In this document: in pieces, positions 27,291 through 47,158 of the stretch | Numbering within the stretch: position 1 is the first letter of the stretch | Layout: each line of letters starts with the position of its first letter | NCBI GenBank assembly: GCA_963833985.1 | Contig: CAWIAD010000002.1 | Span: 3,488,001 to 3,552,000, forward strand | Length of the DNA stretch: 64,000 nt | Origin: an uncultured Planctomycetaceae bacterium | GTDB lineage: Bacteria; Planctomycetota; Planctomycetia; Isosphaerales; Isosphaeraceae | Reading direction: 5' to 3' | Position numbers and translations under genes: made by a program | The notes under the pieces: model-generated | Told to the model about the DNA's origin: nothing | Databases searched by the model: none | Seen by the model: only the letters and a program-made list of their open reading frames with translations

Positions 27291-29150
27291 ATGGGACCGC
27301 GACGTCATCTGGCTCGCTGGCTCCGCCTCGCCATGATCTCGGCGACTGGTGCGCTTTTGATCCTGAGCCTGATGCTGCTTCCGGACCTGGCGGGATTTCT
27401 TCCCCGTGTGATTCGCAACCACGCGCTGGAATGGTCGGCCCTGGCACTCGTGCTGGCATTGTGGCGGCTGCACGTTGTCACCTTGGCTCAACCGCCGGAT
27501 GATCCCGCGGCTGCGCGGCTGCGCCGGTTGTTCGCGGGTCTCGATTCGCTTTCCGCCTTCGTCCTCGATAGCGGGTTCGTCGTCCTGCTGGGCATCATGG
27601 CCGCGGCGATGCTGGCGAGCTGGATCCCCCACTACTTGACGTGGCCCTGGAGCCGCGACGCAGACAGTTACGCCACGCTCGCCCTGTCCTGGGATGCGGG
27701 CGTCCGGCCGTACCGCGATATCCTCTTCTATAACTTCCCCGGGCACGTTTACTTGCACTGGCTCATCGGCCGGACCTTTGGCTGGGGGCGGACTGTCCCG
27801 TTCTACGCGGTGGACGCGACGGCCCTGCTAGCGCTCGGTGCGGTTCTCCTGGCCTGGAGCCGGCGCGCGCTGGGACGCTGGCTGCCGGGTCTGCTGGGGT
27901 ACGTCGTGTTCCTTGGCTTCTACCTGGGCCGAGATTTCGAGCAGGTCGCCCAGCGCGACTGGCATACGTCGCTGGCCGCGGCCCTGGCGCTCTTGACGCT
28001 GGAGGCCTGGCCGCGACGCGCCGGGCTCTGGGCGGCGGCCCTGCTCACGGCCCTGGCGCTGACCATCCGGCCTCACGCGGTGCTGTTCTTGCCGGCGCTC
28101 GTCGCGGCCGTGGTCCAGCGTCCTCGACCCTGGCAATCCCTTGCGGAATGGATCTCAGTGCTCGTGCTCCTTGTCGCGCTCGGGTTCGTGCCGGTGGCGG
28201 CGCAGGGGTTGCTGCACGACCTGGTACGCAACCTGAGAGTCGCCAGCTACGGCGGTCCTTACAACAAGGCGACTCTCCCCGGCGCGCTCGAGATCCTCGC
28301 CGCCGAGCTGAGCGAGCCCTGGACGCTGCTTCTGGCTGGCTCGCTGATCGTGCTCTCCTTTGCGGGCCGGGAACGCATCCGTCCCATGGCGCGGACCTGG
28401 CTGCTTGCCCTGGGAGCAGCCATCCTGTACCGGACGGTTCATCCCCGCCAGCACGCCTACCTGGCGCATCCGCTGGTTCTCTTCAGCTCCATCGCCCTGG
28501 CGTTGCTGGTGGACAGCCTGATCGCGGCGTCCTGGCCTGGCCGGTCCGTGCGCGCGCTCGTGCTGCTGGTGCTCTTCCTCGAAGCCTTTCCGGGCGTGCC
28601 GCAGTTCTGCGATTCGCGCGCCAGTATCGAGGCCATCGGGCCGCTGGTTCGGGGCGAGGAGCCCGCCGACCCTCCCCCCAGTGTTCGCTATCTCTGGTTC
28701 CAGCCCGTGGCGTGCCCCTACGAGTGGACCGACTACCGCGACACGCTGAACTACCTGCGCCGAACCACGAGTCCGGCCACCGAGATCGCCAACGTGCTCA
28801 AGCAGCCTCCGTTTCCTGCCATCAATGGGCCGGTGGGCCGGCTTTCGCCGTTCCATGCCGACTCGGGCATCTGCTGGATGTGGCTGGTGGACCTGGATCT
28901 GGAGATCCCCTTCGCCGAAGCTCTGGAACGCACGCCGGATTCGGTGGTCGTCTGGTCGCCCGCCGAGGTGAACCTGCCGACCCGCCTGCGGCTCGAGCGG
29001 ATCACGGAGGTGATCCTCCACTTCTATCGTCCCGCAGCGCGGTTCGGCGCGATCGAGGTCTGGACGCGTCAGCCGGATGTGGACAGCGGACGGACGCCGG
29101 TTGCGGGGAATCCGGGCTCCTCGGGGACGCTTCCACCGGTCCAGCAGTAG
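27291..29150 (+). CDS. Polytopic membrane protein, GT-C-like glycosyltransferase, paralog 1
   Basis: DADSY...PYRDILFYNFPG loop after the first TMs; many TM helices. Confidence 0.65.
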   Translation: MGPRRHLARWLRLAMISATGALLILSLMLLPDLAGFLPRVIRNHALEWSALALVLALWRLHVVTLAQPPDDPAAARLRRLFAGLDSLSAFVLDSGFVVLLGIMAAAMLASWIPHYLTWPWSRDADSYATLALSWDAGVRPYRDILFYNFPGHVYLHWLIGRTFGWGRTVPFYAVDATALLALGAVLLAWSRRALGRWLPGLLGYVVFLGFYLGRDFEQVAQRDWHTSLAAALALLTLEAWPRRAGLWAAALLTALALTIRPHAVLFLPALVAAVVQRPRPWQSLAEWISVLVLLVALGFVPVAAQGLLHDLVRNLRVASYGGPYNKATLPGALEILAAELSEPWTLLLAGSLIVLSFAGRERIRPMARTWLLALGAAILYRTVHPRQHAYLAHPLVLFSSIALALLVDSLIAASWPGRSVRALVLLVLFLEAFPGVPQFCDSRASIEAIGPLVRGEEPADPPPSVRYLWFQPVACPYEWTDYRDTLNYLRRTTSPATEIANVLKQPPFPAINGPVGRLSPFHADSGICWMWLVDLDLEIPFAEALERTPDSVVVWSPAEVNLPTRLRLERITEVILHFYRPAARFGAIEVWTRQPDVDSGRTPVAGNPGSSGTLPPVQQ

Positions 29151-29162
29151 TGAGCCGAAGGC

Positions 29163-31038
29163 ATGATGACCCGGACGAAATGGAGGCACTGGCTACGCAT
29201 GCTGCTGGCGGCGGTTGCGATCGCGCTGGCGGGCGCCGGACTGATGATCGTTCCGGACACGATCCGGTTGTGGCCACGCTTCCTCCGCGACCATCCCCTG
29301 GAATGGCTATGCCTGGGGCTCGTGATCGCGTTCCAGCAGGCCAGATCGCACGCGCGGTCCCGGCCGCTCGATGACCCGGGAGCCGTCCGGCTGCGCGGGT
29401 CTCTGGCCCGGCTCGAAGAATCTCAGCGGCCGCGCCTTGAACGGGGGATTCACGGTGGCCCTGGCCATCCTTATTATCATCCTCCTGGCAAGCTGGATCC
29501 CCCATTACCTGACCTGGCCCTGGTGCCGCGATGAGGACACCTTCGCCACGCTCGCCCAGTCGTGGGACGCCGGCATCCGACCGTATCGCGACATTCGCGC
29601 GTATAACTTTCCGGGCCATATCTATCTGCACTGGCTGCTCGGCAAGGTTCTGGGGTGGGGACACACGGCGCCCTTTTACGCCGTTGATGCGTCCGCGGTG
29701 CTGGGGCTGGGCGTGGCGCTGGTGTTCTGGAGCCGGCGACGACTGGGAGGATGGCTGCCCGGCCTGCTGTCCTTCGTGGCGTTCCTTCAGTTCTATCTCA
29801 GCCGCGAGTACGAGCAGGTCGCCGAGCGTGACTGGCACGCGACGCTCGCAGCCGTCCTGGCGATCATGACGCTCGAGGCATGGCCGCAGCGACCGGCCGT
29901 CTGGCTGGCCGCGGCGCTGGAGGCGGCAGCCGTGACAATCCGTCCCCATGCCATCTTCTTCCTGCCCGCGATCGCCTCGGCCCTCATGGAGCGGCGCCGG
30001 CCGCGCCGAGGGCTCGCCGAGTGGGGCCTGGCGTTCACCGCGTTCGTCGCCCTGGCCTTCGCGCCGCTGGTGATCGACGGATTGCTCGACGACCTGATCC
30101 GCGGACTCCGCGTTGCCGCGTACGGAGGTCCCTACAGCAAGGCCTCTCTGACCGTGGCCAGAGAGGCGCTTGAGCTCGAGCTGCGTGATCCCTGGACAAT
30201 CTTCCTGGCGGCGTCGCTGATCGTGGTCTGGGCGTTCCACCGCCTTGTCGGCCGTCCCATGGCGCGGACCTGGCTGCTCGCCCTGGCAGCCGCGATCCTT
30301 TACCGGACGGTTCATCCGGTTCAGCATGCGTACCTGATGCATCCGCTGGCCCTGGTGAGCGCGATGGTCCTGGCCCTGCCGGTCGCCTCATTGCTTTCCC
30401 TGTCCTGGATTGCGCAGCCGGTGCGCGCGCTGCTGATCCTGCTTCTTTTCCTAAAAGCCTTTCCCGGTCGGCCCTTGAACTGCGATCCGGGCGACAGCCT
30501 GCGCGCGATCGTCTCGATAGCGTGCGGCCAGGACCCGGAGGCTCCGCCCTCAGGCTGCCGCTACTTCTGGTTCCGGCCGAAGGCGTGCAATTACGAGTGG
30601 CGTGACTACTGCCGGACGCTGGCCTACCTGCGGCACACCACCAGTCCGGCGACCGAGATCGCCAACGTGCTGCGGCTCCAGCCGTTTCCATCGCTCAATG
30701 GGCCGGTGGGCCGGCTTTCGCCATTCCGGGCGGAATCCGGGATCTGCTGGATGTGGCTGATCGACATCGACCTGGATGGTCCATTCGCCGAGGCCCTGGA
30801 AAACACTCCGGATTCGGTGGTGGTCTGGTCGCCCGATGAGGGTGATCGCCAGCCGCGCCTGCGGCTCGAGCGGGTCTCGGCGGTGATCCGGCGTTGCTAT
30901 CGTTTCGACGCCCGGTTCGGTGCCATCGAGGTGTGGAGGCGATCCGCTGCGGACGAAGCCGCGCGAACTCCAATGCCCGGCAGCCCCGCGGCATCGGGGT
31001 CGAGCCCGCCCGCGATCGCAGTGCCACCCCGACGATAG
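29163..31038 (+). CDS. GT-C-like membrane protein, paralog 2, frameshift near 29418
   Basis: Colinear with paralog 1 (WIPHYLTWPW, PYRDI, GPVGRLSPF, SGICWMWL). Confidence 0.65.
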
Positions 31039-32687
31039 CGCGCGATCCACTCCACCCGTTCGGCCGGATCATAGCGGATGTACGCCGTCCGCTCGAAGAA
31101 CGTCACACCCCAGTCGCAGGCCACCTTCCACGCCTTCGCATCCATGCCGAACCGCGCCGCGCACCGGGCTGGGTCGAGCTTCGGTGCCGGTGTGGCATCG
31201 GGCCAGCCGAACGCCCCACGCTGCTTCAGTGATTCGAGAATCGCTTGTGCCAGTGCCGCGTGGCCGCGCACGCTGGGGTGCATCGCGTCCAGAAAGAGCG
31301 TGTCGCCGGGAATGCCGCTGGGGCTCGCGGCCTCGAGCACGGCCTGGCCGTCGACCAGGATCGCTTGCGGATGACGCGCGGCCACCTCGCGATAGACGTC
31401 CTGGAAGTCGCCCGGGCAGCGCATCGGCAGACCGTCATGGTCCCTGGCCGCGCGGAAGTGCCGGCCGGCTTCGGCAAGCTCTCCGCTCTGTTCGAGGAGG
31501 CGGCCAAGACGGTAATGCGCCTCCGCAAAACCAGGCTGGTCGGCGAGCAGCTCCCGGTAGAGGCCGACCGCCCCGGAGGGATCGGTTTGCTCGGCGCCGC
31601 GCACGGCGAGGAACCTCCGGGTGAACGCCTCGCGCCCGGCCTTCGCGGTTGCGGCGGGCAGGCAGGAGCGATTGGGCTCGAACCCCGCGTCGTTGCCCGG
31701 GGGAATGAGCAGCACGGCGAGCGTGCCGATCTGCTCGCAGTGTGCCACGATCGCCTCCAGCCGGCGCTGGAATTCGTGGAGCTGGAAGGCGTACTCCTCG
31801 GGCGTGACGGCCGGCACGTCGACGAGCTGCCGCGTGACCTCCGGCGGCGGTGGTTCGCCCAGCCCGTTGGCCTCGATGGCGTCCTGAATCAGACCGCAAA
31901 GCGGCGAACAGCTGCCCGCGAGCCTGCGCAGGATCTTCCGCGGCCGCGAGGGAATCTCATCCAGGTAATGATCCACCGAACGAGACCAGCGGTAGCGGTA
32001 CGTGAACTCGTTGTGGCCCGAGAAGATGATCACGAGATGCGGCTTGCGAGTGTAGCCGCCGAGCTTCTGGTACATCCATTCCAGGTGCACTCCCGGCTCG
32101 GCCAGGACGTCCAGCCGGAACCGGCGATCAGGGATGGCATCGCCCAGCGCGGCCGCGACGATGCGGCCCGTGGAGAGCCATTTCTCGAACGGCAGGCCGT
32201 AAGCAGCCGATCCGCCCAGGACCACGACATTCACCTCGCGCTCGTCCTGCTTCTCGAACCGCGTGCGCAAGGGGAGCAATGGCAGCTCGCGCCCCACGCG
32301 CGCTCTCCAGACCGCGGCCCCACCTTCCGCGATGAAAATCGCGAACAACCCGGCGGCGCAGAGCACGAGCAGCCGCGAGGCGAGCATGGCGCGGCGTCCT
32401 CGCCTGCGGGACCGCAGCACCAGCAAGGCCGTGACCGGCAAGACGGCCAGGAGAACCGCCAGCGCCACTCCGTAGGCTGGCTGTGCCGCCAGCAGGAACG
32501 CTTGCGCCACGTGCCGAAGCTGCCGCTCGGGGACCGTGGCACGCACCCAGAGGGGAACAACCAGGCCCCCTGTCACGAGCGCCGTGAGCAAAAGAGCAAT
32601 CATCGCCAGCCGGGCCCATCGCACGGTAACCAGCGCCTCTCCTCTGTCCGACGCCACCGCCTCCCCCCGAGCGCCCGCGTCACGCAT
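30897..32687 (-). CDS. Membrane-anchored SGNH-like / TPR protein
   Basis: VVLGGSAAYG, FSGHNEF, DAMHP; TPR-like AEAHYRLGRLL; start uncertain. Confidence 0.7.
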   Translation of the reverse strand: MRDAGARGEAVASDRGEALVTVRWARLAMIALLLTALVTGGLVVPLWVRATVPERQLRHVAQAFLLAAQPAYGVALAVLLAVLPVTALLVLRSRRRGRRAMLASRLLVLCAAGLFAIFIAEGGAAVWRARVGRELPLLPLRTRFEKQDEREVNVVVLGGSAAYGLPFEKWLSTGRIVAAALGDAIPDRRFRLDVLAEPGVHLEWMYQKLGGYTRKPHLVIIFSGHNEFTYRYRWSRSVDHYLDEIPSRPRKILRRLAGSCSPLCGLIQDAIEANGLGEPPPPEVTRQLVDVPAVTPEEYAFQLHEFQRRLEAIVAHCEQIGTLAVLLIPPGNDAGFEPNRSCLPAATAKAGREAFTRRFLAVRGAEQTDPSGAVGLYRELLADQPGFAEAHYRLGRLLEQSGELAEAGRHFRAARDHDGLPMRCPGDFQDVYREVAARHPQAILVDGQAVLEAASPSGIPGDTLFLDAMHPSVRGHAALAQAILESLKQRGAFGWPDATPAPKLDPARCAARFGMDAKAWKVACDWGVTFFERTAYIRYDPAERVEWIARYRRGGTAIAGGLDPDAAGLPGIGVRAASSAADRLHTSMAPNRASKR

Positions 32688-33000
32688 TGTGGAATCGCGG
32701 GTCTTCGAGGGTCGAGGTCTCCACAGCGGCCGGACTGCCGGACACCGATACCGGCATTGAAGGATCGGGTTCCCGGGACGTCGTCGCGTCGTTGCTGCTT
32801 GTTCGGACATTCAGTTCGGACCGATGGCGATACAGGATCGCGAGCAGTTCATCGTCGTCGATCTCCCCAAGGCCCCGACCAAGATGAGCTTCTCCCAGAA
32901 AGCCCAGGTGAGCGAGCAACTGGCCGAGCCGCACATCCGGTGACAGGGCCCAGATCTCGGCCAGAACGGCGAGCGGTTCTCTCTGCGTGGTCGGGGTCAT
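32680..33000 (-). CDS. Small hypothetical protein (antitoxin-like partner)
   Basis: PDVRLGQLLAHL...IDDDELLA; ATGA-coupled to the upstream ORF. Confidence 0.65.
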   Translation of the reverse strand: MTPTTQREPLAVLAEIWALSPDVRLGQLLAHLGFLGEAHLGRGLGEIDDDELLAILYRHRSELNVRTSSNDATTSREPDPSMPVSVSGSPAAVETSTLEDPRFHNA

Positions 33001-33293
33001 CGAAGCAGATCTCCAATCCTGGGCTCGGCAGCAAAAGCCCTGGGAAGCTTGCCGATCACCTCGACGCGGAGGAGAACCCCTGGCGCGAGCTTGGCAATGC
33101 GGGTCGCACGAGTCACTCCAGTATACCGGACGAGCACGCCGTCTGACGCCTCGTCAACCCAGGGCGGTGGCATCCCGATCGATGATCTGCCGAAGAGCGA
33201 GATCTGCCTGGCCAACCGCGCCGGATCGGCTCCCTGCCGCCTCGAGGGAGGAACTCGCAGCTCCCGAGGGTCCACATCACGGAAGTCCTGCAT
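32997..33293 (-). CDS. Small ParB/Srx-like protein
   Basis: MPPP...DG...YTGVTRATR resembles the ParB/Srx core. Confidence 0.5.
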   Translation of the reverse strand: MQDFRDVDPRELRVPPSRRQGADPARLARQISLFGRSSIGMPPPWVDEASDGVLVRYTGVTRATRIAKLAPGVLLRVEVIGKLPRAFAAEPRIGDLLR

Positions 33294-33344
33294 CGAGTCG
33301 AAACCTGGCATGAACCCAGCGATACGCAAGAGCTGCTTGCGATC

Positions 33345-33443
33345 TGGCGGGAGCGTATGGGAATCGAACCCACCAGGAGCCTGTTTCCAGACCCCTCACC
33401 GGTTTTGAAGACCGGGCCCGGCACCAGCCATGGACACGCTCCC
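33345..33443 (-). tRNA. selC: tRNA-Sec (anticodon UCA)
   Basis: 8-bp acceptor stem GGGAGCGT/ACGCTCCC, anticodon loop CTTCAAA, long variable arm, GGTTCGATTCC, encoded CCA. Confidence 0.95.
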
Positions 33444-33712: not shown

Positions 33713-36097
33713 TCAGGGTTCGTAGCAGCCGGGGATCAGTATCGAGGGGACGCGACCGGCGGCGTGCAGGCGAAGCAGCGCGTGGCCCGTGCCCGCCAGG
33801 CCGAGCATGAGCGAGGGGTTCACGGCCGTGGACACCAGGCCGGAGGGGTAATCACAGGCTGTGCCGTGACGCTCGATGAGCACCCGCGCGATCTCGCCGG
33901 CCTGGTCGAGACACGCAGGGTCCTGGAGCTGAATTCCGGCGCAGAGCAGCACTTCAAGCAGTCCGGCCAGTCCGTGGCAAAGCGACGCGTCATGCCCGCG
34001 CCGTGGAAGGTTTTCCTGGACCGCGGCCAGGGTCGTCGCCAGGGCAGCCTGCGCCATCGCGCGGTGCCCTTCCCCTTGCTCCGGGTCCAGGGCCATGGCG
34101 CGCAGGCGGGCGAGTGCGATCCCGGGCGCGCCATGGCACCAGGCCCGGCCATGACCGGGAGGACGGGGCGGTCCCAGGGCATCCACGGTGAACCTCAGAT
34201 CCGGCCAGTTGCCGGCGGCCTCGTCGAAGAGGGAATCCTCGTAAGCGAAGGCGCCGCGGGCAGCTTCCTGGTAACCGGGGCGTCCCGTTGCCGCATGCAG
34301 CTCCAGCAGGGCCAGGGCAATGCCCGAGGCGCCGTGGCTCATGCCCGTGAGCGGTAGCGTCGCGGCGGACCCATCGCCGACGGCACCGGAGGACCACATC
34401 CAGATCGGGCCGGCACGGTCGGCCTGGCGGCAAAGCTGGTCACCGAGAGCCCGCGCCCATGCAAGGTGACGCTCGCTCCGGACAGGCGGGGCCAGCTCCC
34501 GGTGCAGGGCCAGCAGCGCGAGGATCGCCCCGGCGCTGCCGCCGATCAGGTCGATGGCATGCGGTTCGTCGACGGCCTCGTCGAGATGATCGAGCAGGAT
34601 CTCCGCCCGTGCGTGCAGTTCGTCGGCGCGGGTGAGGACGGCCACGCGATGCGCTGCGTACGCCACGCCGAGCTGGCCCGCGAACAGTGAAATGGGCGCC
34701 AGAGCGGAGACCGGGTCCTGCCAGTCGGTGACGGCCCGGAGCGAGCGGTTCATGGCGGCCATGGCGGTGCGGCGCAGCCCATGGTCCCCGGTGAGCCCGT
34801 GAACCTCGGCCAGGAAGAGGGCAACGCCCGCTGATCCGCCGTAGAGCTCCGGCCCGAGCGCCGCGGACGCGGGAACGATCGCACCACCGGGCTTCAGTTC
34901 GTCGGGAGAACGGCCCATCCAGTTGCAGAGAAGACCCGACGTGTCCCAGAAGGCCGCACGGCACAGGCTCTCAGCAATGCGGACTGCCGCGTCCAGCGGC
35001 GAAAGGGTCCGCTGTACAGCAGGCGCCGGGCCGCCCGCACTTGCGATCGACGGACGACGCTCCGCACAGGGCCTCCAGCCGGATAACGGCTCGAACGACG
35101 CGAACGTCGAGCCGGGCGCGAGATACGGGTACGCGGGGTCGAGTTGATTCTGGCGGAACGACTCGATGACCACCTGCAAACGGTCATCACCGATGCGGCC
35201 CCTGGCAAAAGCGTCCCAGAGCGCCCCTGCAATCAGCCGGCAGCGATGCTCGCCGTAGCTTGGTGAAGCCGGCGAGACCTCGACCATGGCCAGGCCGTCC
35301 GCCAGGCGATGCGTGAGCAGGGGCGTTTCAGGCCGCAGCTCCGCGGCGACGGACTCATAGATCGGCCCCATGGCACCGGCCAGGGCAGGGGCGTGGCGGC
35401 GGCCCACGTACAGGACTCCGGCGTCGGCGCGATGGTAGGCATCCGGATCTCTCAGGACCTTGAGCCGGAACGGGATGGCGCGCGCGTTCAGAGCGGAGCT
35501 TGCCACGGCGACGAAGCGTGTTGCGGCCTGGCGCGTGAGGTGCCAGTAGAACCGCCATTGTCGATCGCCGCCGTTTACCACGTCATCCAGCGCATCCTCG
35601 TCGGCATCGCCGTGAACGTAGAAGAACCCGGGCATGAGATGCCGCAGTTCCCTGGGAACGCGAAGCCGGCAGTGCTCTCCGGGAATCAGGCGGCCGCTGC
35701 CGGTGCGGACGTCCCGCGCGCTGGCCCGGACCTCGAGGTCCCCGCGGCCGACGACGACCTGACCGTCGTCTTCGACCACACGGACGGTCCAGTCCGGGCT
35801 CCAGGCGCCTTGCCCCGCATTCGCCGCCGACAGCGCGGCCAGGAAGTCGCGGCGGTCGCTCCAGCCCGAGCCGCAGGGAATTCCGGCTGGCGCGCTTCGG
35901 GTGTAGAGCCGGCGGTAGAGCTCACCGGCGAGCGAGTTCAACAGCGGCGCTGGACCTGGTTGTGGATCGTCCGACGCATCCCCCTCGCATTCTTCGAATT
36001 GCCGCGTGTCGTCCAGGATCCGGTAGCCCGCGGGCGAGAGGATCTGGACAGCCTGCACCATGGTTTCCAGGTCGGGATGGAAATGGACTTGCGGCAT
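33713..36097 (-). CDS. HopA1-like (LanY/TvaD-type) phospho-lyase fused to a Zn-dependent LanC cyclase
   Basis: N-half RFYWHL, FRLKVL, RADAGVLY, SYGEHRCRLIA; C-half LYGGSAG, DLIGGSAG, GMSHGASG, WPDLR, WCHGAPG, LCHGLAG; ATG overlaps the kinase TGA. Confidence 0.85.
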   Translation of the reverse strand: MPQVHFHPDLETMVQAVQILSPAGYRILDDTRQFEECEGDASDDPQPGPAPLLNSLAGELYRRLYTRSAPAGIPCGSGWSDRRDFLAALSAANAGQGAWSPDWTVRVVEDDGQVVVGRGDLEVRASARDVRTGSGRLIPGEHCRLRVPRELRHLMPGFFYVHGDADEDALDDVVNGGDRQWRFYWHLTRQAATRFVAVASSALNARAIPFRLKVLRDPDAYHRADAGVLYVGRRHAPALAGAMGPIYESVAAELRPETPLLTHRLADGLAMVEVSPASPSYGEHRCRLIAGALWDAFARGRIGDDRLQVVIESFRQNQLDPAYPYLAPGSTFASFEPLSGWRPCAERRPSIASAGGPAPAVQRTLSPLDAAVRIAESLCRAAFWDTSGLLCNWMGRSPDELKPGGAIVPASAALGPELYGGSAGVALFLAEVHGLTGDHGLRRTAMAAMNRSLRAVTDWQDPVSALAPISLFAGQLGVAYAAHRVAVLTRADELHARAEILLDHLDEAVDEPHAIDLIGGSAGAILALLALHRELAPPVRSERHLAWARALGDQLCRQADRAGPIWMWSSGAVGDGSAATLPLTGMSHGASGIALALLELHAATGRPGYQEAARGAFAYEDSLFDEAAGNWPDLRFTVDALGPPRPPGHGRAWCHGAPGIALARLRAMALDPEQGEGHRAMAQAALATTLAAVQENLPRRGHDASLCHGLAGLLEVLLCAGIQLQDPACLDQAGEIARVLIERHGTACDYPSGLVSTAVNPSLMLGLAGTGHALLRLHAAGRVPSILIPGCYEP

Positions 36098-37240
36098 CAC
36101 GCGGACGACCCGGTGGAAAGGCCGTAGAAACCAAGCCGGCCGCGACACGTATCGGCCAGCAGGTTGGCGCCAAGCTGGAGCAGGAGCACGGCCTGTGTGG
36201 GCAGGACTTCCCGCTCCAGCGACAGCTCGTGCGCCGCCTGGATGAGACGTGCCGCCGAGAAGGCGACCGCGCGCTCGAGCAATTCCAGGGCGCTTGAGCC
36301 ACCGGCGCCGGCGTGGCATGACGCCGTCTGGGAGTACCCTTCCCAGAGCGCTCGGATGGCGGGTCGCAGCGCGCTCAGGGGATACTTCGCCCGACCGATC
36401 ATCTCTTCCACGGCGAGTTCCGGCTTCAGGGGCATGGACCCGATCCAGAGCATGACAAAATCGTGCAGGGCCGAGGCCAGGTCCCAGGCGGGGTCGCCGC
36501 GGTGCACGAATTCCCAGTCGACGAGCCAGATGGAAGCACTCGCGACCGATTGCCCCTCGTGTGTGCTGGCGACAAGGATGTTGTCGGCCTTGATATCGCC
36601 GTGAATGACCGTCTCTTCCCGCCACATCGCACCGAGACGCTCGACGCGGCTCCCAGGCCGGCTGCGCTGCGAAGGAGCCGGAACACGTCGGCCCCGGCAG
36701 GGCTAAGGTCGATGAGCATGCCCGGAGTCGGTTTCCGATGGGCCGCGAAGACCCAGGGCACCGGCCGCCCCAGCCAGCCTAGGCTGTCGTGGGCTGCCAG
36801 TTCCGGCCCGCGGAACACCCCGTGCAACGTGCCCAGCGCCCGGCCCAGGGCGTGGCTGGGCGCGACCGGGAACGCATCGGCCGGGTGTCCAAGATGGTGG
36901 GCGAGCAGAGTCCGGCGCCGGGAATCAGTTCCAGGGCGTGGGCCCCGTCCTCGCGGTCGAGCCAGCGGAGGCCTGGCAAGTACCTTGCCAGTTCCGCGGC
37001 TGCCGGTTCGTTGTGGCAAAAGTCGTAGAAGTGCGCTTCGTTCCTGAGCGTGTGGGAACTGGCCGGCGAGAGCGCATCGGGCTGCTTCACGAGCAGGCCG
37101 GCGCCGCCGGGTCCCTCCACCCTGAGGTTGCGGTTGCGCCGCGCCGCGCTGCGGACGGTCAGGCGGCCTTGAACGATCCAGTCTCGGTCCACGAGATTCT
37201 GTTCGAGCAAGAACGGGATCACGGTGTCGACGTCCAGCAT
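36097..37240 (-). CDS. APH-family phosphotransferase (LanK/TvaC-type kinase), frameshifts near 36912 and 36644
   Basis: RRNRN, LLVKQ, HGDIKADNIL, LVDWE, GDPAWDLA spread over three frames. Confidence 0.82.
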
Positions 37241-37339: not shown

Positions 37340-37867
37340 TCAAGGGTAAGGGTGAGGGTAGATTGGATCCGACACGCACACGCCGGTCAGGTGGCAATTG
37401 GAGGTCCCGCCAGTGCCGCCTGTGCCGCCGGTGCCACTGGGTGTCTCAACGCCTGACAGTGGCCTGCACGGCGTGGTGTGCACGAGGTTCTTGTCCTCGT
37501 TCTCGACCAGGATGTTCACGGTGAGGCCGGCCGCGGACGTGGACAGGCTTTTTGAGGAGATCGCGCCTTTCAGATACCCGGCCTCGACCTGCTGCGACGA
37601 GACCACTCGATTGATACTGGCGGTGGCGCTGACCACCAGCTTCGTGGGACTCGATTGCTGCCCGGGGACCGATCGCTCGGCCCAGACAATCTCGCCCCTG
37701 GGGATCTCCAGGTAGCAGCGCAGGTCCAGGTCCGGATAGATGGTCACGGTCTGTTCGGTGACCGTGTCGATGTAGCCGTGAAGGATGATGAACTGGCGCT
37801 GGTCGTCGGGCCTGGGCTTGAGGGCCTGGAGAAGCGGATTGGTGAAGAGTTCCAGGGAGTTGCTCAC
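37340..37867 (-). CDS. Candidate RiPP precursor: long leader domain plus Ser/Thr/Cys-rich tail
   Basis: GTG start with AGGAG; last 46 aa HTTPCRPLSGVETPSGTGGTGGTGGTSNCHLTGVCVSDPIYPHPYP contain 12 Ser/Thr and 3 Cys. Confidence 0.65.
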   Translation of the reverse strand: MSNSLELFTNPLLQALKPRPDDQRQFIILHGYIDTVTEQTVTIYPDLDLRCYLEIPRGEIVWAERSVPGQQSSPTKLVVSATASINRVVSSQQVEAGYLKGAISSKSLSTSAAGLTVNILVENEDKNLVHTTPCRPLSGVETPSGTGGTGGTGGTSNCHLTGVCVSDPIYPHPYP

Positions 37868-37962
37868 AGGACCTGCTCCTTCGACGTAGTAGAAAAGTGC
37901 TGGATGGTTCAGAGTCTAACGAAGCCGGATTCTTGACGGTGAGCCGTCTTCGGGCGGCCGGA

Positions 37963-40900
37963 TCAGCGGACTCGGTTCCCCGCGAGGGAACGGCGTGCCG
38001 TCCAGGCGCTGGAGTCAAGTACGTGGATCACGCCATCGTCGCCAAGGCCAAGCCCGGTGAGGCTCTCGAGTTCGGCGGCGACATTGGCTGCATCCGCCAC
38101 ATCGGCGGCCTCCGCGGCGGACGGGGCGGCAGCCACGCTCCAGAGGCGCGCCGTGAGGTCTTCACAGCGCGTCAGGACCGCGCGATCGTCCGGCGAGAGG
38201 GCAACGCTGAAGACCTCAAAAGGGTCTCCGCCCGGTTTGCGAGGATGCGCAAGGGCCGGGCCGATGGGCCGTCCCGTGCCGGCATCCCAGAGGCTGGCCG
38301 TCCCGTCCTGGCTGCCTGTCAGGGCCAGCCGTCCGTCCCGGCTGAAGGCCACGGTCGTCACCGCGGCCTGATGCAGCAAGGGCTGACCGCGCGGCGTGCG
38401 GGACGCGGCATCCCACAATCTGGCACGCCCGTCGATGCAGCCTGTGAGGACGGTCTGGCCGTCTGGACTGACGGCCACGGCGGCCACGCCGGCCGGGTGG
38501 ATCAGGGGGGCTCCGCGCTGCACCCCGGTTGTGATGCTCCAGAACCGGGCCTGGTTGTCGAGGCAGCCGCTGACCAGGGTCTCTCCATCCGGGCAGAGCG
38601 CCAGCGCCACGACCGGCCCGGTATGCGGCAGCGGAGGCAGCTTCGCGGCCCCGGTGTCCGGGTCCCAGAGTCGCACGGTCGTATCGACGCTGGCGGTGAT
38701 GGCCGTGCGTCCGTCCCGACTGAACCGGCCCTCGAAGATCACCGTCTCGTGCCTCAGCACCGCGCCGCGCGGGACTCCGCTCTGCACGTCGCAGAGGCGG
38801 GCCGTGCCGTCCAGGCTGCTGAAGAGCACCGTTCTCCCATCCGGGCTGAACGCGGCCGACTTGACCCGCTTCGCGAACCGCAATGCCTGGCCCACTGGCC
38901 GGAGAGCCGCCAGGTCCCAGAGCTGGGCCCCGCCGTTTTGTCCGCCCACCGCGACGCACTGTTCGTCCGGGCTCGACGCCAGAACGCTGACCGGCTCGCC
39001 CGTGGCAAGAGGAGCGGCTTGCGGCTGCCCGGACGTCGCGGAGCAAAGCAGCACCGTGCCGTCACCTGTCCCCAGCAGGAGGCGCTTGCCGGCGGACCCG
39101 TAGGCCGCGTACTGCACCGCGCCGGCATGCGGCAGCTCGCGGACCGCGTTCCTGTCCGGCCGCGCGTCCCAGAGCCGGCTGGTCCGGTCGGCCCCGGCGG
39201 TGAGGAGCTTGAGACCGTCGGGACTGAATGCCACGCTGTTGACCCTGCTCTCGTGGCGAAAATCGCGGCCCAGCGGCCGGCCGGTGCGTGCGTCCCAGAG
39301 CCGTGCCGAGTGGTCCCAGCTGCCCGTTGCCAGGGTCTGGCCGTCCGGGCTGAACGCGAGGGACCAGACCCGGTCATCGTGCCGCAGAATATCCCCCCGG
39401 CGCAGTCCCGTGGCAACCTCCCAGAGCCGCGCCGTATGGTCGGCTCCCGCGGTTGCCAGGGTCTGCCCGACCGGGCTGAAGACGGCCACCCAGACCTCGC
39501 CGTCGTGCGCCAGCTTGTGCAGCAGACGGCCGCTGGAGACGTCCCAGAGCCGAGCGAAGTGATCCGCGCTGGCGGTGGCCGCGACCTTGCCGTCGGGGCT
39601 GAGATCGACCCACTTGACCTGGTTCTCGTGTCGCCAGGGTTCTCCCAGAGGCCGCCCCGTGGCAACCTCCCAGAGCCGCGCCGTGCCGTCGTCGCCACCG
39701 GTGAGAAGCGTCTCTCCGCCGGCTGCCAGCGCCACCGAGACGATCCGGTCCGGATGGCCGGGTAGCTCACGCAGCAGCCGGCCGTCGGCCACGCTCCAGA
39801 GGCGCGGCTTACCGTCGGCGCCAGCCGTCACGAGCCGCGTTCCGTCGGAGCTGAAGACCCCCTGAGACACCTCGCCGCGGTGTCCCACGAGGTCGTGCCG
39901 CAGTGCCCCGCTGCCGGCATCCCAGAGCCGCGCCTCGCCGCTCAGGCTGGTGGTGAGCACCGTCTTGCCGTCAGGGCTGAACGCCCCGGTCCAGACCACG
40001 CCCCGGTGCGGCAAGGGCGGTCCCACGGGCATGCCGCTCGTGGTATCCCAGAGCCGTGCGGCCTGGTCGGCGCCGGCGGTGAGCACCGCCTTGCCGTCGG
40101 GGCTGAAGGTGGCGAACTTCACCTCGCCGGCGTGCGAGAACACCGCCTCCAGGTTCGGGTAGGAACGTTGCCAGGCCGCCAGGTTCTCCCGGGCGATGCG
40201 CGCAGCGCGGGGTCGCCGGCAGCACGAGCGGCATGCAGACTGCGGGCCAGCCAGTGGAGACCGGGGCCAACATCGCCGCGCTCGCAGGCGGCGCGGCCGA
40301 GCCCGAAATCGAGCACTGCAAGCTCACGGGTGGACTGGTTCAGCAGGCGAGCGCGGTTCAGGGAATAGAGGGTCGAGAGGATGGTCACGGCCACCAGGGA
40401 GGCCGACATGCCTCCCAGGGCGGATGCCAGCGCGGGGTTGCGCAGGCACCAACGCCAGGCGCGCTCCGCCGAGCTGACCGGCCGGGCCTTGATCGGTTTG
40501 TTCTCGAGGAACCGCCGCAGGTCCTCGCTCAGCTCCGCGGCCGTCTGGTAACGGCTGGCAGGGGTCTTGTGCATGGCTTTCAGGCAGATCGTCTCCAGGT
40601 CCCGCGGAACCCGGTCGTTGAGCTTACGGGGGGGCCGTGGATCATCATGGATCACCTGGTCCAGCAGCATCCGCGCTGTCCCGTGAAACGGCAGCTCGCC
40701 ACTGATCATCTGGTAGAGCACGACGCCGAGGCTGTAGACGTCGCTGCGCCGATCCACCTTGCTCTGCTCGCCGCGCGCCTGTTCGGGAGGCATGTACGCC
40801 GGGGTGCCGAGGATCTGGCCGTCCACCGTGATCGAGATCTCGCCGGCCTCGCGCTTGGCCAGCCCGAAATCCATGAGGATTGGCTGGCCCTCGTTGTCGA

Positions 40901-41676
40901 TCATGATGTTCTGCGCCTTCACGTCGCGATGCACCACGTTCCCCTGGTGGGCGGCGTGCAAGGCGTCGGCCAGCTCGGCCGCCGTCCAGGCCGCCTCCCG
41001 AAACGTGGGCCGGCGGGTCTTGAGCGACTCGGCGAGCGTCACCCCGGTGATGAAGTGGCTGACGATGTACGGGATGCCCTCGAACTCGTCAGCCTCGATC
41101 ACGCGGACGATGGCTCGATGGTTGAGCCGGGCAACGGTGCGCGCCTCCTCCCAGAACCGCTCGCGCGAGCCGTTCTCACCCAGCGAGCCGGCGCAGCAGC
41201 TTCACGGCGACATCACGCTGGAGCTTCGAGTCGTAGGCCCTGTAGACCGTGCCGAACGCGCCGGTGCCGACCGGCTCGACCAGCTCGTACGAGGAAATCC
41301 GGTTCGTGCCCAGGGAAACCGTCCGGGGCAGCCTCACGGAGCTGCCAAGGGCAATTCGCGAGTGGCACGTGGGACATTCCAGGTGGTCGGCGGGCGCCTG
41401 GTCGACCAGCTCGATGCCCGCCCCACAGTTGGGGCAGTGCAGCTTGAGCGACCGCAAGGGTTCCAGCACGACCCCGTCGCGCGTGGTCTCGTGCGGCGGC
41501 GCCAGGAAGTCCTCGCGCTCGGCCTGGGCGTCGCGGGCCAGCAGCCGCTCGACCTCGGCGCGCAGGTCCGGTTCCTCACCGCAACGGCTCTGGAGCAGCG
41601 CCTGCCGCTCTTCCGCGGAGAGCGGCAACGCTTCGTGGAACAGCTCGTAGACGCGCTGCCACACACCTTCGGTCAT
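37963..41676 (-). CDS. Hanks-type Ser/Thr kinase with Zn ribbon, TM and WD40 repeats; frameshifts near 41195 and 40200
   Basis: CPNC..CPTC, GTGAFG, VAVK, HRDVKAQN, DFG, GTPAYMPPE; many FSPDG...ARLWD repeats. Confidence 0.9.
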
Positions 41677-42245
41677 TGCTTGCCTCCCTCGAGCTGGTCG
41701 CGCAGCCAGGCACGAGCGAACCGCCAGTCCAGCTCCACGGTTCCCACCGAGACCTCCAGCGCGTCGGCGACCTCGGACACGGAGAGCCCCGCAAAGAACC
41801 GCAAGGCGACGACCAGACCCTGCCGCTCGTTGATCTCGGCCAGCCTGTCGAGGGCTGCATTGAGGGCCTCGATGTCCAAGTTCTGCTCCTCGAAAAACGC
41901 CAGGGCCTCGTCCAGGGGCACCCGTTTCAGGTCCCCGCCATGGTTTTTTCGCTTGCGGTGATGGTCCACCAGCACGTGGCGCATGGCCCGCATCGCGGCG
42001 CCGAAGAGGTAACGGCGGTTCGGGGCCTTCTCGATCGCGTGCCCGTTGATCAGCCGGACGAACGCTTCCCCCACCAGGGCCGTGGGCTGGAGCGTGTGTC
42101 CCGGCCGTTCCTTGCTCATGAGAGACACGGCGATGCGATGAAACTCCTCGTAGATGGCGCGGAGCAGTTGATCCCGGGCGGGTCCCTCCCCGTTCCGGGC
42201 CGCCTTGATCAGCTCGGTCACGTTCTGCGTCTGGTTCACATTCAT
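41673..42245 (-). CDS. ECF sigma factor, TIGR02999-like
   Basis: HTLQPTALVGEAF, AMRHVLVDH, LRFFAGLS, DWRFARAWL; ATGA-coupled to the kinase. Confidence 0.9.
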   Translation of the reverse strand: MNVNQTQNVTELIKAARNGEGPARDQLLRAIYEEFHRIAVSLMSKERPGHTLQPTALVGEAFVRLINGHAIEKAPNRRYLFGAAMRAMRHVLVDHHRKRKNHGGDLKRVPLDEALAFFEEQNLDIEALNAALDRLAEINERQGLVVALRFFAGLSVSEVADALEVSVGTVELDWRFARAWLRDQLEGGKQ

Positions 42246-42443
42246 CGTCTGACCCTGAAGCCTCCCAGGGCAGGGAAGATCGGTCGCTCTCCCCGCATGG
42301 TCATGCGTCACGCCGCTCGACAACCTTAACGCTCACCCGACTTTTTTCTTTCCGTGAATTCTTTCGGGTACCCCAGGCCGGCTTACGTATATGCCTTCTA
42401 GAAGGATGATCAGCGAGATGGCAACGAGGCGAAAGGATCGGTC

Positions 42444-42959
42444 ATGGGGAACCCGATGAACACCCGCACCGACTGGCGGCCCGGACCGGCGATCCGGGGA
42501 CCGCACCAGGCTGAGTGCGACACGCGGAGGCTGATCGTGCCTGATCATCAGGAGAGCCGAGCCCGGCTGCTGGTTCGCCCCGTCGGCGATCTCATCGTCG
42601 TCAGGTGTTTCAGCACCCAGGTGGAATGGGACGATCCGGAAACAGGAGACCTGGGCACAAGCCTGCTTGGACTGAGCAAATTGGGCTATGTGCGCATTCT
42701 GGTCAATCTCGAGGGTATCAACTACGCGTCGGGATCGCTGCTGGGTAGTCTTGCCCATTTACATCAGGCCACCGTTCGCGCCGGGGGCTTCCTGAAGCTC
42801 TTCGGCCTGGAGGCGATCCTGCGGGACGCGCTTGTCATTTGCCGGCTCGATTCCAGGCTGGCGATTTACGCCAGCGAGTCGGAAGCCCTTGAGGGCAGCG
42901 TACCGGCCGCGGATCATGCCGGCTTGTGGATTCCGGGGGGACTGTCCCCTCGTTTCTGA
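42444..42959 (+). CDS. STAS-domain (anti-anti-sigma-like) protein
   Basis: ILVNLEGINYASGSLLGSL, GGFLKLFGL, ICRLD. Confidence 0.75.
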   Translation: MGNPMNTRTDWRPGPAIRGPHQAECDTRRLIVPDHQESRARLLVRPVGDLIVVRCFSTQVEWDDPETGDLGTSLLGLSKLGYVRILVNLEGINYASGSLLGSLAHLHQATVRAGGFLKLFGLEAILRDALVICRLDSRLAIYASESEALEGSVPAADHAGLWIPGGLSPRF

Positions 42960-44218: not shown

Positions 44219-46935
44219 TCACGGCATCTGCAAAATGTACCCTTTGCCGTCCGCCGCTGCCACCGCCATCCGTTTGCCGTCAGGGCTCCAGGCCAGCCCG
44301 TACGTGACCAGCCCATCTCCCATCTTCTGATGCCAGAGCACTTTGGCGGCCTCGGCATCCCAGACGAACAGGCTGCCGCCATACCCCAGCGAGGCCAGCC
44401 GCTTGCCGTCGTGGCTGTAGGCGACCACGTAGACGTCGTCGGGATGGCCTTCCAGCTTGTGCCACTCCTTGCCGTCGGCGACATTCCAGAGCCGGATGGA
44501 GCGGTCCACGCCACCCGAAGCCAGGCGCGCGCCGTCGGGGTGAAACGACAGGGCGTACACCGCCGCGCCATGCCCCTCGCTCTTCCGCAGCTCCTTGCCA
44601 TCGGCGGGGTTCCAGTACTTGACGAGCTTGTCGTCGCCGCCGGTCGCCAGCATGTCGCCCCTGGGAGCAAACGCCAGGGCATAGACGACATTGGCGTGCG
44701 CGTTCCACTGGCGGAGCTGTTTCCCTCCGGCCGCGTCCCAGAGCCGCACCGTCTTGTCGGCGCCCGAGGTCGCCACGGTCCTCCCGTCCGGCGTCCAGGC
44801 GACCGCGTAGACCTGGCCGGCGTGGCCGGTCAACCCGACCGGCTGCAAGGAGCTAACCTTCCAGATCCGGACCTTGCCGTCGCCGTGACCGGTCAGGAGC
44901 GACGGCGGATCGGAGCCGAAAGCGAGTGCTTTCACCGGCCCCGATCCGCGGGCGGCGAACGGCTCGGACTCCGCGCTGGCCGAGCCTTCGCCTCCCAGCT
45001 CAAAGAGCCGGGCGGAGCCGTCATCCAGGCCGGCCACCACCAGCTTGCCGTCGCGGCTGATTGCCAGGGAACCGATCGGCGCCGGCATTTTTGATTGGAC
45101 CTGCACGGCCGTGCCGCTGACCGCGTTCCAGACCCGGACGGTGCGATCCTCACCGGCGGAAAGGATCCTCGTACCGTCGGTCGAGATCGCCACCCCGCGC
45201 ACCGGCGCCGTGTGCCCGGCGAGCGAGCGGATCAGCCCGCCGGTGTTCAGATCGAAGACCAGGAGGGACCCGTCCCCCGCTCCCGCGACCACCTGGCTGC
45301 CGTTGGGGTGAACGGCGACCGCGCGCAGGGGTCCGGCATGGCCGATCATGAGCCGTACCGCGGCTGGCTTCCAGATCCGGATCGGCCCCTGCTCGGTCGC
45401 CAGGACCACCGAAGCATGATCGGCCAGGAAATCCGCGGAGCCGATGATGCCACTCAGACCGGTGAACCGCTGAAGCTCGCGGCCGCTGGCAGTCTCCCAG
45501 AACCGTAAGGGATGATCGTTCACGGCCGTGGCCAGGAACTTGCCATCACTCGAGATCGTCGCCGAGACCACGGGTCCGCCATGGTTGCCGAGCGCGGCCA
45601 TGACCTTGCCGTCGCCGACGTTCCAGAGCCTGGCCGTCCCGTCTTCGGAGCCCGTCACCAGCTTCGAGCCATCCCCGCAGATGCGCATCTTCAGGATGGC
45701 GGCGCCGTGGCCGGCAAACTCGCGGATCACCTTGCCTTCGTTCACGTTCCAGAGCCGCGCCGTCGCGTCTGCCGACGCCGAGAAGAGCTGGTTTCCATCC
45801 CGAGGTGCGTACTCCAGCGCGGTGATGCGCTGGCGGTGCCCCTTCAGCTCCTTGACCGTCTTGCCATCCGCGACCGCGATGACCCGCAGCTTGGCATCGT
45901 CTCCGCCCAGGACAAGCTGTGCCCCATCACCCCGGAGGGCAAGCGCCCTGATCGAGAACGGGACCGGCCCGATCTTCTTGACCTCCTTGCCGTCATCAAC
46001 CGAGCAGAGCCGCACCACCCGGTTCGCCAGCACGATCGCAACCCGGCGTCCATCGCCATCGAGTCCGAGCCCCTCCACGGGCTGGTCATTGCCGCCGATC
46101 TCCTTCATGAGCTTGCCGTCAGTGAGGTTCCAGACGCGGATGATCCGGTCCCCCCCGCACCCCGCAAGCCGCTTTCGATCGGCGCTCACCGCGAACTGCA
46201 CGGGCTTCCCGGCGCATCGATCGGTCTGGGCTCGCTCGCCGGCAATTGCCAGAGCCGGGCGACGCCCTCCGGGCCGGACGAGACGAGCAGGGGCTTCCCC
46301 GGGACGTAGGCCAGGGCAAGAACTGCGCTCGCGGAGGTCTCGATCTGCCCGTCCGGGTTCAGCGCGTCGTTCCAGAGCCGGATCGTGCCCGAGCCATCGC
46401 CTGCGGCAAGCTGCGCTCCATCGTGCCGCCAGGCCAGGCAAGCGACGTCGCCGGAGAAGCCTTCCAGCGTCTTGATCGCGGCTCTCCTGGCCAGGTCCCA
46501 GACCTGCACCGACCTTCCCGACGCCGTGGCCGCACGCTTGCCATCCGGAGTCACCGCCAGGGCCGTGATTGCCGGGCCTGGCCCCGGCAGGCTGCCGATC
46601 GGTCCACCCCCCGGCACATCCCAGATCCTGGCTGTGCCGTCCAGGCTGGCCGAAGCCAGCCGCCGGCCGTCGGGTGAGAATGCCACGCTCAGGACGATCC
46701 TGGAATGACCCTCGAAGCGCTTCACCTCCTTGAACGTCGCGGCATCCCAGAGACGCACCGTGTTGTCGAAGCCGGCTGTCGCCAGCAGCGCCCCGTCCGG
46801 GCTCCAGGCCACGGCGTAGACTGGGTCGGTGTGCCCCTCGAGTGTTCCCACAATTCGCGCTCGCGGAGCATCCGCCGCCCCGGCCGTCATGCTGGTGAGG
46901 AAGGCGGCAGCCATCAGGTGAAGCAGGTCCGGCAT
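44219..46935 (-). CDS. Secreted multi-WD40 repeat protein; frameshift near 46210
   Basis: Signal-like N-terminus; many GH...WD repeats. Confidence 0.85.
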
Positions 46936-47158
46936 GGTGCGTCTCCCCGACGTCCCCAAGTTCTCAATCTCGTGTTTGACAGATGCTTAACATAATCGTG
47001 CCCCCTCCGTCCCGCAATCTGTGGGGCATTGTCGCTCAGCACTGCCGCGCCGGTTCAACGGACATGACTTCCCAGGGTAGGCCTCGATTCGCTAAGATCC
47101 GCGAGCGCACTTCTTCTCGTCCCGGCCGACGAACGGAACGGGGTCCTCTCCAGGAGCC

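Follow-up and report, generated by a model that had tools for sequence, protein, structure and literature searches.

A candidate class Vb-type lanthipeptide precursor with a predicted beta-barrel domain in a planctomycete genome

Results

A 175-aa open reading frame in the window (the whole stretch of 64,000 nucleotides analysed here, from an uncultured Planctomycetaceae bacterium) very probably encodes a ribosomally made precursor that belongs to a lanthipeptide system of class Vb type, and the enzyme pair encoded next to it would act as its modifiers. We make this assignment, which is read from sequence, because the order of the genes, their domain families and catalytic motifs, and the co-variation seen across genomes all agree. 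The region contains the following features.

42444-42959, plus strand: STAS-domain protein, divergent, recurring at WD40-kinase loci (domain search, locus comparison)
41673-42323, minus strand: ECF sigma factor, overlapping the kinase start (PF07638, E 8.1e-51)
37963-41676, minus strand: protein with a Ser/Thr kinase domain, one predicted transmembrane helix and a WD40 part, its gene broken into three frames and ending 96 nt before the precursor
37876-37882, minus strand: Shine-Dalgarno-like GAAGGAG, visible in the sequence, 8 nt before the start
37340-37867, minus strand: LanA-like precursor gene, 175 aa, GTG start, first in the precursor-kinase-lyase/cyclase order of homologous loci
37592-37855, minus strand: conserved folded domain, residues 5-92, one helix and six strands forming a small beta-barrel (predicted structure)
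37544-37588, minus strand: putative LanK-recognition helix, residues 94-108, with VEAGYLKGAI at 94-103 and the family motif (F/Y)LxGxI (conservation, enzyme-class tracking)
37343-37531, minus strand: variable tail and putative core, residues 113-175, with 13 Ser/Thr, C134, C158 and C164 (composition)
37403-37435, minus strand: GTGGTGGTGGT linker repeat, residues 145-155, private to the window's copy
36097-37240, minus strand: APH-like Ser/Thr kinase of LanK type, its coding sequence spread over three frames, with HGDIKADN and VDWE motifs (PF01636, E 1.8e-8)
33713-36097, minus strand: LanY (HopA1-like phospho-lyase)-LanC fusion, 794 aa, intact (PF17914, E 7.7e-29; PF05147, E 4.6e-49)
33345-33443, minus strand: tRNA-Sec, downstream of the operon by 270 nt, listed for context

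The precursor gene and its enzymes

The segments FIILHGYI, VTIYPDLDL, YLEIP and TKLVV, which the preliminary description had picked out, were all found in the translation. The GC3 of the ORF is 0.83, and the existence of homologues argues against a chance ORF. The gene is single-copy in a two-contig genome of 10.16 Mb, whose gene content points to an Isosphaeraceae-like planctomycete. Beside the three cysteines of the tail, the protein has a fourth, C51, inside the folded domain. Counting confirmed 12 Ser/Thr and 3 Cys in residues 121-175, as well as the repeat and the DPIYPHPYP end (last residues YP) that had been described for the tail. The motif C-x3-G-x-C-x-(S/C) at the tail end is common to 19 of the 173 family members defined below. 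The (TGG)3 repeat, which had been placed in the title of the preliminary description, is present but is not a family trait: TGGTGG occurs in 1 of 173 members and a single GTGG in two close relatives, so that we rejected it as a hallmark of the family and regard it as incidental.

The LanK gene, with frame breaks near 36912 and 36652, scores 43 bits against the LxmK model NF038156, under the cut-off of 315, and in the family alignment its best solved relative is LxmK (9dk1_A, E 6.9e-11). The closest solved relatives of the fusion are LxmY (9dk1_B, E 4.3e-7) and LicM2 (E 2.3e-15). The lyase residues are R182, K213, R223 and Y230, the first three being invariant across 12 fusions; the available text of PMC9486802 gives K219/R229/Y236 as catalytic in CaoY, and the K/R/Y spacing is the same, with the tyrosine at K+17. 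The cyclase part is of the zinc type, GMSHG, WCHG and LCHG being present and the acid and zinc motifs intact. The class Vb features found at the locus are thus an APH-like LanK, a HopA1-like LanY with its Arg/Lys/Arg/Tyr set, a zinc LanC (here fused) and a precursor with Ser/Thr and Cys in its C-terminal core. As had been noted before, no protease or exporter is adjacent: none was found among the 13 + 8 window ORFs scanned, from 24671 to 47695.

A family of barrel-bearing precursors

With phmmer, 179 representatives were retrieved at E<=1e-3 and 42 at E<=1e-10 (50% clustering), and a word-indexed search returned 3 relatives. The family set comprised 175 proteins, namely the best 150 of the 179 phmmer representatives, 4 from the word-indexed search and 21 further ones; one protein without a domain match and one 2955-aa match were dropped, leaving 173, among which 162 have tails of at least 20 aa. 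These tails have a median length of 60 aa and a maximum of 758 aa; Cys is present in 161 of the 162 and a repeated 8-mer in 47, and their composition is 9.6% Cys and 16.4% Ser/Thr, against 0.46% Cys in the leader part. Mean identity to the window's protein in the 138-row alignment is 34% for residues 5-92, 37% for residues 93-112 and 10% for residues 113-175. The homology check proposed in the preliminary description therefore returned the expected picture of a conserved domain and hypervariable, Cys-rich tails with modification enzymes alongside, and tails that are conserved or Cys-free are not what characterizes the homologues.

Pfam, NCBIfam and PDB sequence searches gave nothing credible for the family, and none of 138 members matched a relevant Pfam/NCBIfam model, those for Nif11 and NHLP leaders included, at E<=0.01, which agrees with the earlier remark that the leader is unlike either. 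The literature searched, with most subscription journals outside its coverage, yielded no account of a barrel-bearing precursor family, which apparently is undescribed so far. Named holders include Archangium gephyra and Acidobacteria. The viral contigs searched contained no member, and no fused form turned up in the range 668-2000 aa, though this negative carries little weight. In the phylum samples, where 8-11 candidates were scored per genome, the domain is sparse (2/401 planctomycete and 4/301 and 2/401 acidobacterial genomes). At L076:4036-6893 (G522:C213), two precursors stand in tandem, one of which has 53 Cys and a tail of 532 aa; other members reach 873 aa with 85 Cys (proteins P0174, P0175 and P0178, listed with L076).

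In the predicted structure, pLDDT is 95-98 in blocks within residues 11-90 and 53-69 elsewhere. About 100 N-terminal residues had been described as globular and beta-rich; the predicted fold bears out their character, but the folded part spans ~90 aa and VEAGYLKGAI is a separate helix. Foldseek with the predicted structure found nothing at E<=1e-3 in the PDB or a viral library. When compared with Hfq/Sm and SH3-like small barrels, 38-44 residues superpose at 1.2-2.3 A, below significance, and the modelled fold bears at most a weak resemblance to Hfq/SH3. Homology with the small barrel within LanY was rejected (hhalign probability 0.1%). Stand-alone look-alikes of the barrel (93-114 aa, ESM score 0.91-0.93) carry the automatic label 'inorganic pyrophosphatase Ppa'; having no Pfam match, they were not used to assign a function.

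Linkage with modification enzymes across genomes

The taxonomic-family sample comprised 121 genomes, in which 25 loci were examined and one weak match (G436:C24) was left out. The domain is carried by 22 of these genomes. Directly downstream of the precursor, LanK followed by LanY-LanC is found in 22 of the 25 loci and is missing in 3, and HopA1 is present in 24 of the 121 genomes (20 of the 22 with the domain versus 4 of the 99 others, kin not being independent in this count). Outside the host family, nine loci show the LanK(-LanY-LanC) order (L003-L007 and L073-L076, with L005 and L006 cut by contig ends), two actinobacterial loci have LanC and LanB, one has no enzyme match and one ends inside the precursor. 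Homologues unlinked to enzymes, which the preliminary description had named as evidence against itself, are therefore the minority.

Both LanB loci, L063:8123-14918 (Nonomuraea gerenzanensis) and L062:9986-15164 (a Streptomyces plasmid), have barrel-bearing Cys/Thr-rich precursors adjoining LanC and LanB; directly upstream of the precursor of L063 lies a HEXXH-motif protein (EYLLHEAMH) with no Pfam match at 1e-4. Three barrel loci are without enzymes; the orphan genomes show no LanC, G442 and G484 show no HopA1 either, and in the tree the two orphans from planctomycetes form sister rows. At L078, L079 and L082, which are loci of the LanK/LanY-LanC type, no precursor was detected; at L079 and L082 (G430 and G432), LanY-LanC comes after a Ser/Thr kinase, LanK being present or not, and an unassigned frame lies between on the opposite strand. 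At L080:7859-10113 (G466), LanK, LanY and LanC are accompanied by a repeat precursor of another kind, built of TIFPPC cassettes, and by a subtilase upstream. The whole kinase-precursor-LanK-LanY/LanC module is tandemly duplicated at L048 (G431:C43) and L045 (G428:C4), with differing precursors. An 807-aa protein without a Pfam match, whose start may resemble VioB-like proteins, lies directly upstream of the precursor at L004:7495-9918.

One further piece of evidence was provided by G428 and G429, in which an in-frame deletion of ~150 aa has removed WCHG/LCHG from LanC and the tails are Cys-free, a single event, these being sister rows. Such joint loss of the zinc ligands and the tail Cys supports a chemistry between tail Cys and LanC. 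At L048, a Cys-free tail stands beside an intact LanC, and L052 has no tail; frameshifts are possible at both.

The helix behind the barrel

Which part of the precursor do the enzymes recognize? L99 and G101 of the helix are conserved at 90% or above. Among the 31 LanK-linked precursors scored (L058 included, frameshifted L056 left out), 27 have (F/Y)-hydrophobic-x-G, 3 a variant and 1, L007, no motif. None of the three enzyme-free orphans has it, nor does either LanB-linked member (L062 and L063), in which EFDLDV stands instead, presumably the class I FxLD box; an FxLD box with an adjacent LanB, the test for a class I precursor, is absent at the window's locus. In the accessible part of PMC8153245, at least 10 rows of Family 11 peptides, which are without a barrel, contain FLxG(D/E)I, and a leader helix binds CaoK in the model published in PMC9486802, as presented in its available text. 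Because the presence of the motif tracks enzyme class, barrel-less Family 11 included, the helix is likely the enzyme handle, and recognition likely rests on it rather than on the barrel.

The barrel itself is found at class V, class I and enzyme-free loci alike, whereas the motif that follows it differs among them. Since it persists in this way, the ~90-aa barrel appears to be a modular add-on that travels independently of the helix; it may remain attached and have a role of its own.

The upstream kinase module and surroundings

In 23 of the 25 host-family loci, a eukaryote-like Ser/Thr kinase domain is encoded on the precursor's strand no more than ~5 kb upstream, and at a 24th locus an FGE-domain gene of this type is cut by the start of the contig. 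With 132 Ser/Thr kinase loci in genome G000, chance would give ~3% per locus, the loci sharing descent. A quick tree of 18 neighbour kinases (matches <130 aa dropped) contains three groups. Within the barrel clade of the window's protein (6 rows, support 97), ECF-kinase-WD40 lies upstream in 6/6, two orphans included, and one hydrophobic helix follows the catalytic domain in 8 of 9 neighbour kinases tested. At the loci outside the family, the acidobacterial and actinobacterial ones included, no upstream Ser/Thr kinase was found, several of these loci having little upstream DNA. Kinases of this kind are linked with ECF control in the available text of PMC7826278; for the planctomycete family, we regard the operon as probably an output of the upstream ECF/membrane kinase module and its product as possibly that module's ligand. 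A promoter and terminator scan gave chance-level results.

Where the window has its tRNA-Sec, G410 has a tRNA-Sec as well, together with a further tRNA-like copy and a fragment of a transposase, which suggests an insertion site. Beyond the tRNA, 32680-33329 holds two small ORFs, of 106 and 110 aa, that fall in no Pfam family, and at 27291-31038 FHA and VWA genes are followed by genes for two membrane proteins of 619 and 555 aa, paralogues of each other and without a Pfam match.

Discussion

By the chemistry of CaoK/CaoY and LanC, LanK would bind the (F/Y)LxGxI helix after the barrel and phosphorylate Ser/Thr of the tail, the HopA1-like domain would eliminate the phosphate to leave Dha/Dhb, and the fused zinc LanC would add tail Cys thiols, giving (methyl)lanthionine rings whose likeliest places are near C134 and the conserved T-S-N-C158-x2-T-G-V-C164-x-S end. 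The barrel would later be cut off by a protease encoded elsewhere, the fate towards which we lean slightly, or be kept, for which the chances fall a little short of even. Across the loci compared, no conserved protease or exporter was found near the precursor; M13 peptidases occur near L040 (Pfam-tested, directly behind the cyclase), L051 and L060 (by clustering), M28 peptidases near L003, L051 and L059, and G000 has four C39 domains, the nearest ~220 kb off. The cassette-like long tails favour cutting, and the survival of the barrel without enzymes favours a retained function.

It is in the fate of the barrel that the strongest rival, which shares this chemistry, departs: the barrel would be the functional body, possibly self-assembling by analogy with Hfq rings or GerQ filaments, the rings would do no more than stabilise a displayed tail, and the whole product would work with the membrane Ser/Thr kinase. 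Such a protein would fit the lack of a conserved protease or exporter, tails as long as 758 aa, the stand-alone look-alikes and the same kinase type in every row of the barrel clade; it would also fit G484 and G442, where a barrel with a Cys-rich tail lies beside ECF-kinase-WD40 with no HopA1/LanC seen, although the G484 genome is only 80% complete. Many of the long tails, however, are tandem cassettes with Ala/Gln/Gly spacers, as expected for multi-core precursors that are cut, and the peptidases near some loci and the C39 domains elsewhere in G000 offer candidates for cutting. Moreover, the likeness to Hfq is below significance, and the protein has no signal peptide, yet the WD40 part of the kinase follows the transmembrane helix. 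We consider this rival possible but doubtful, and give the same tentative standing to its broader form, a family of lanthionine-stapled proteins in which the barrel stays on tails with dozens of rings, swaps its motif for class V or class I enzymes and serves planctomycete membrane Ser/Thr kinase signalling instead of being a secreted antibiotic.

Another question is whether the window's copy belongs to a decaying cluster, the family being real but LanK and the Ser/Thr kinase pseudogenes and the protein left unmodified, or whether the frameshifts are an artifact of assembly. Two frameshifts lie in LanK within 1.1 kb, a density above the background of about one per 8-10 kb, and two in the upstream Ser/Thr kinase, and an IS fragment interrupts the fusion gene in G446, as decay would have it. 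Against this, the essential genes gyrA and valS are likewise split in the window's assembly (rpoB, rpoC and dnaE are unbroken, and secA gives an ambiguous reading), splits affect 7 of 45 orthologous loci, LanK among them, the LanK pieces contain no in-frame stop and match the intact kinase of G410 at 56-58% identity, and the fusion gene is intact. Assembly error is the probable cause of the frameshifts, and decay is unlikely. A WD40 gene at 44219-46959 of the window appears split over two frames, likely by another assembly indel.

Quite improbable, finally, is an arrangement in which the main targets of the lyase/LanC are phospho-sites that the upstream kinase makes or bears, the small protein conceivably giving Cys for an intermolecular thioether by an OspF- or LanCL-like logic: the upstream kinase in 23/25 host-family loci, the three kinase lineages that precede such modules and the lack of a detected precursor at L079 and L082 speak for it, but none of the acidobacterial or actinobacterial loci has that kinase, a dedicated LanK is retained almost everywhere, and the tails hold Ser/Thr and Cys in a spacing that fits intramolecular rings.

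Taken as class Vb-type precursors, the family would add a third protein-like RiPP leader type after NHLP and Nif11, one that no Pfam/NCBIfam model detects. The length of these precursors probably lets them escape short-peptide miners, so that at least 170 diverse precursor clusters, some with tails of >50 Cys, would lie unmined. They also offer concrete candidate substrates for the HopA1-LanC fusion of 2021, including Archangium gephyra AA314_07417 (identified by the precursor alone), and have a putative recognition motif in common with a precursor family to which they are unrelated. Should the barrel stay on, lanthionine chemistry would here be a protein modification tied to planctomycete kinase signalling.

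Comparison with known systems

Like NHLP and Nif11 leaders, as treated in the available text of PMC12537861, the family has a long structured leader, several enzyme types, a short C-terminal recognition segment and, it may be, an origin from a stand-alone protein; unlike them, its 138 members have no sequence match, the predicted fold is a beta-barrel and not helical, and no double-glycine/PCAT exporter linkage is seen. With class Va (cacaoidin, lexapeptide), it shares a kinase and lyase homologous to LxmK/LxmY with matching catalytic spacing, whereas the window's locus has a LanC, no cysteine decarboxylase (LanD) or LanX among the neighbours scanned and no C-terminal AviCys Cys.

HopA1-LanC fusions were proposed as an uncharacterised lanthionine synthetase by Eyles et al. 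2021 (PMC8153245, accessible in part). The Family 11 and 20 clusters of that text have the same architecture, and Family 11 has FLxG(D/E)I, but their precursors are actinobacterial peptides of ~100-110 aa without a barrel; in its peptide table, as available, the barrel words VRLY, WRLY, YYEIP and YLEIP are absent, and a lone YVEIP belongs to a DUF433 protein. Distant kinase/lyase pairs in Planctomycetes are mentioned in the accessible portion of PMC7794033.

Class Vb, as Pei et al. 2022 is recounted in the available parts of PMC11186320 and PMC12328550, consists of SmoA with LanK, LanY and a dedicated LanC. The window's locus is alike in its split APH kinase and HopA1-like lyase, its LanC cyclase and the lack of LanD/LanX nearby. 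It is unlike the SmoA system in that lyase and cyclase form one fusion, the precursor has a ~90-aa barrel (with family tails of 20-758 aa), the hosts are planctomycetes, acidobacteria and myxobacteria, and a Ser/Thr kinase-ECF module lies upstream. On the sequence comparisons made here, we think it highly likely that the locus works in the manner of class Vb lanthipeptide systems, with its lyase and cyclase joined in a single protein.
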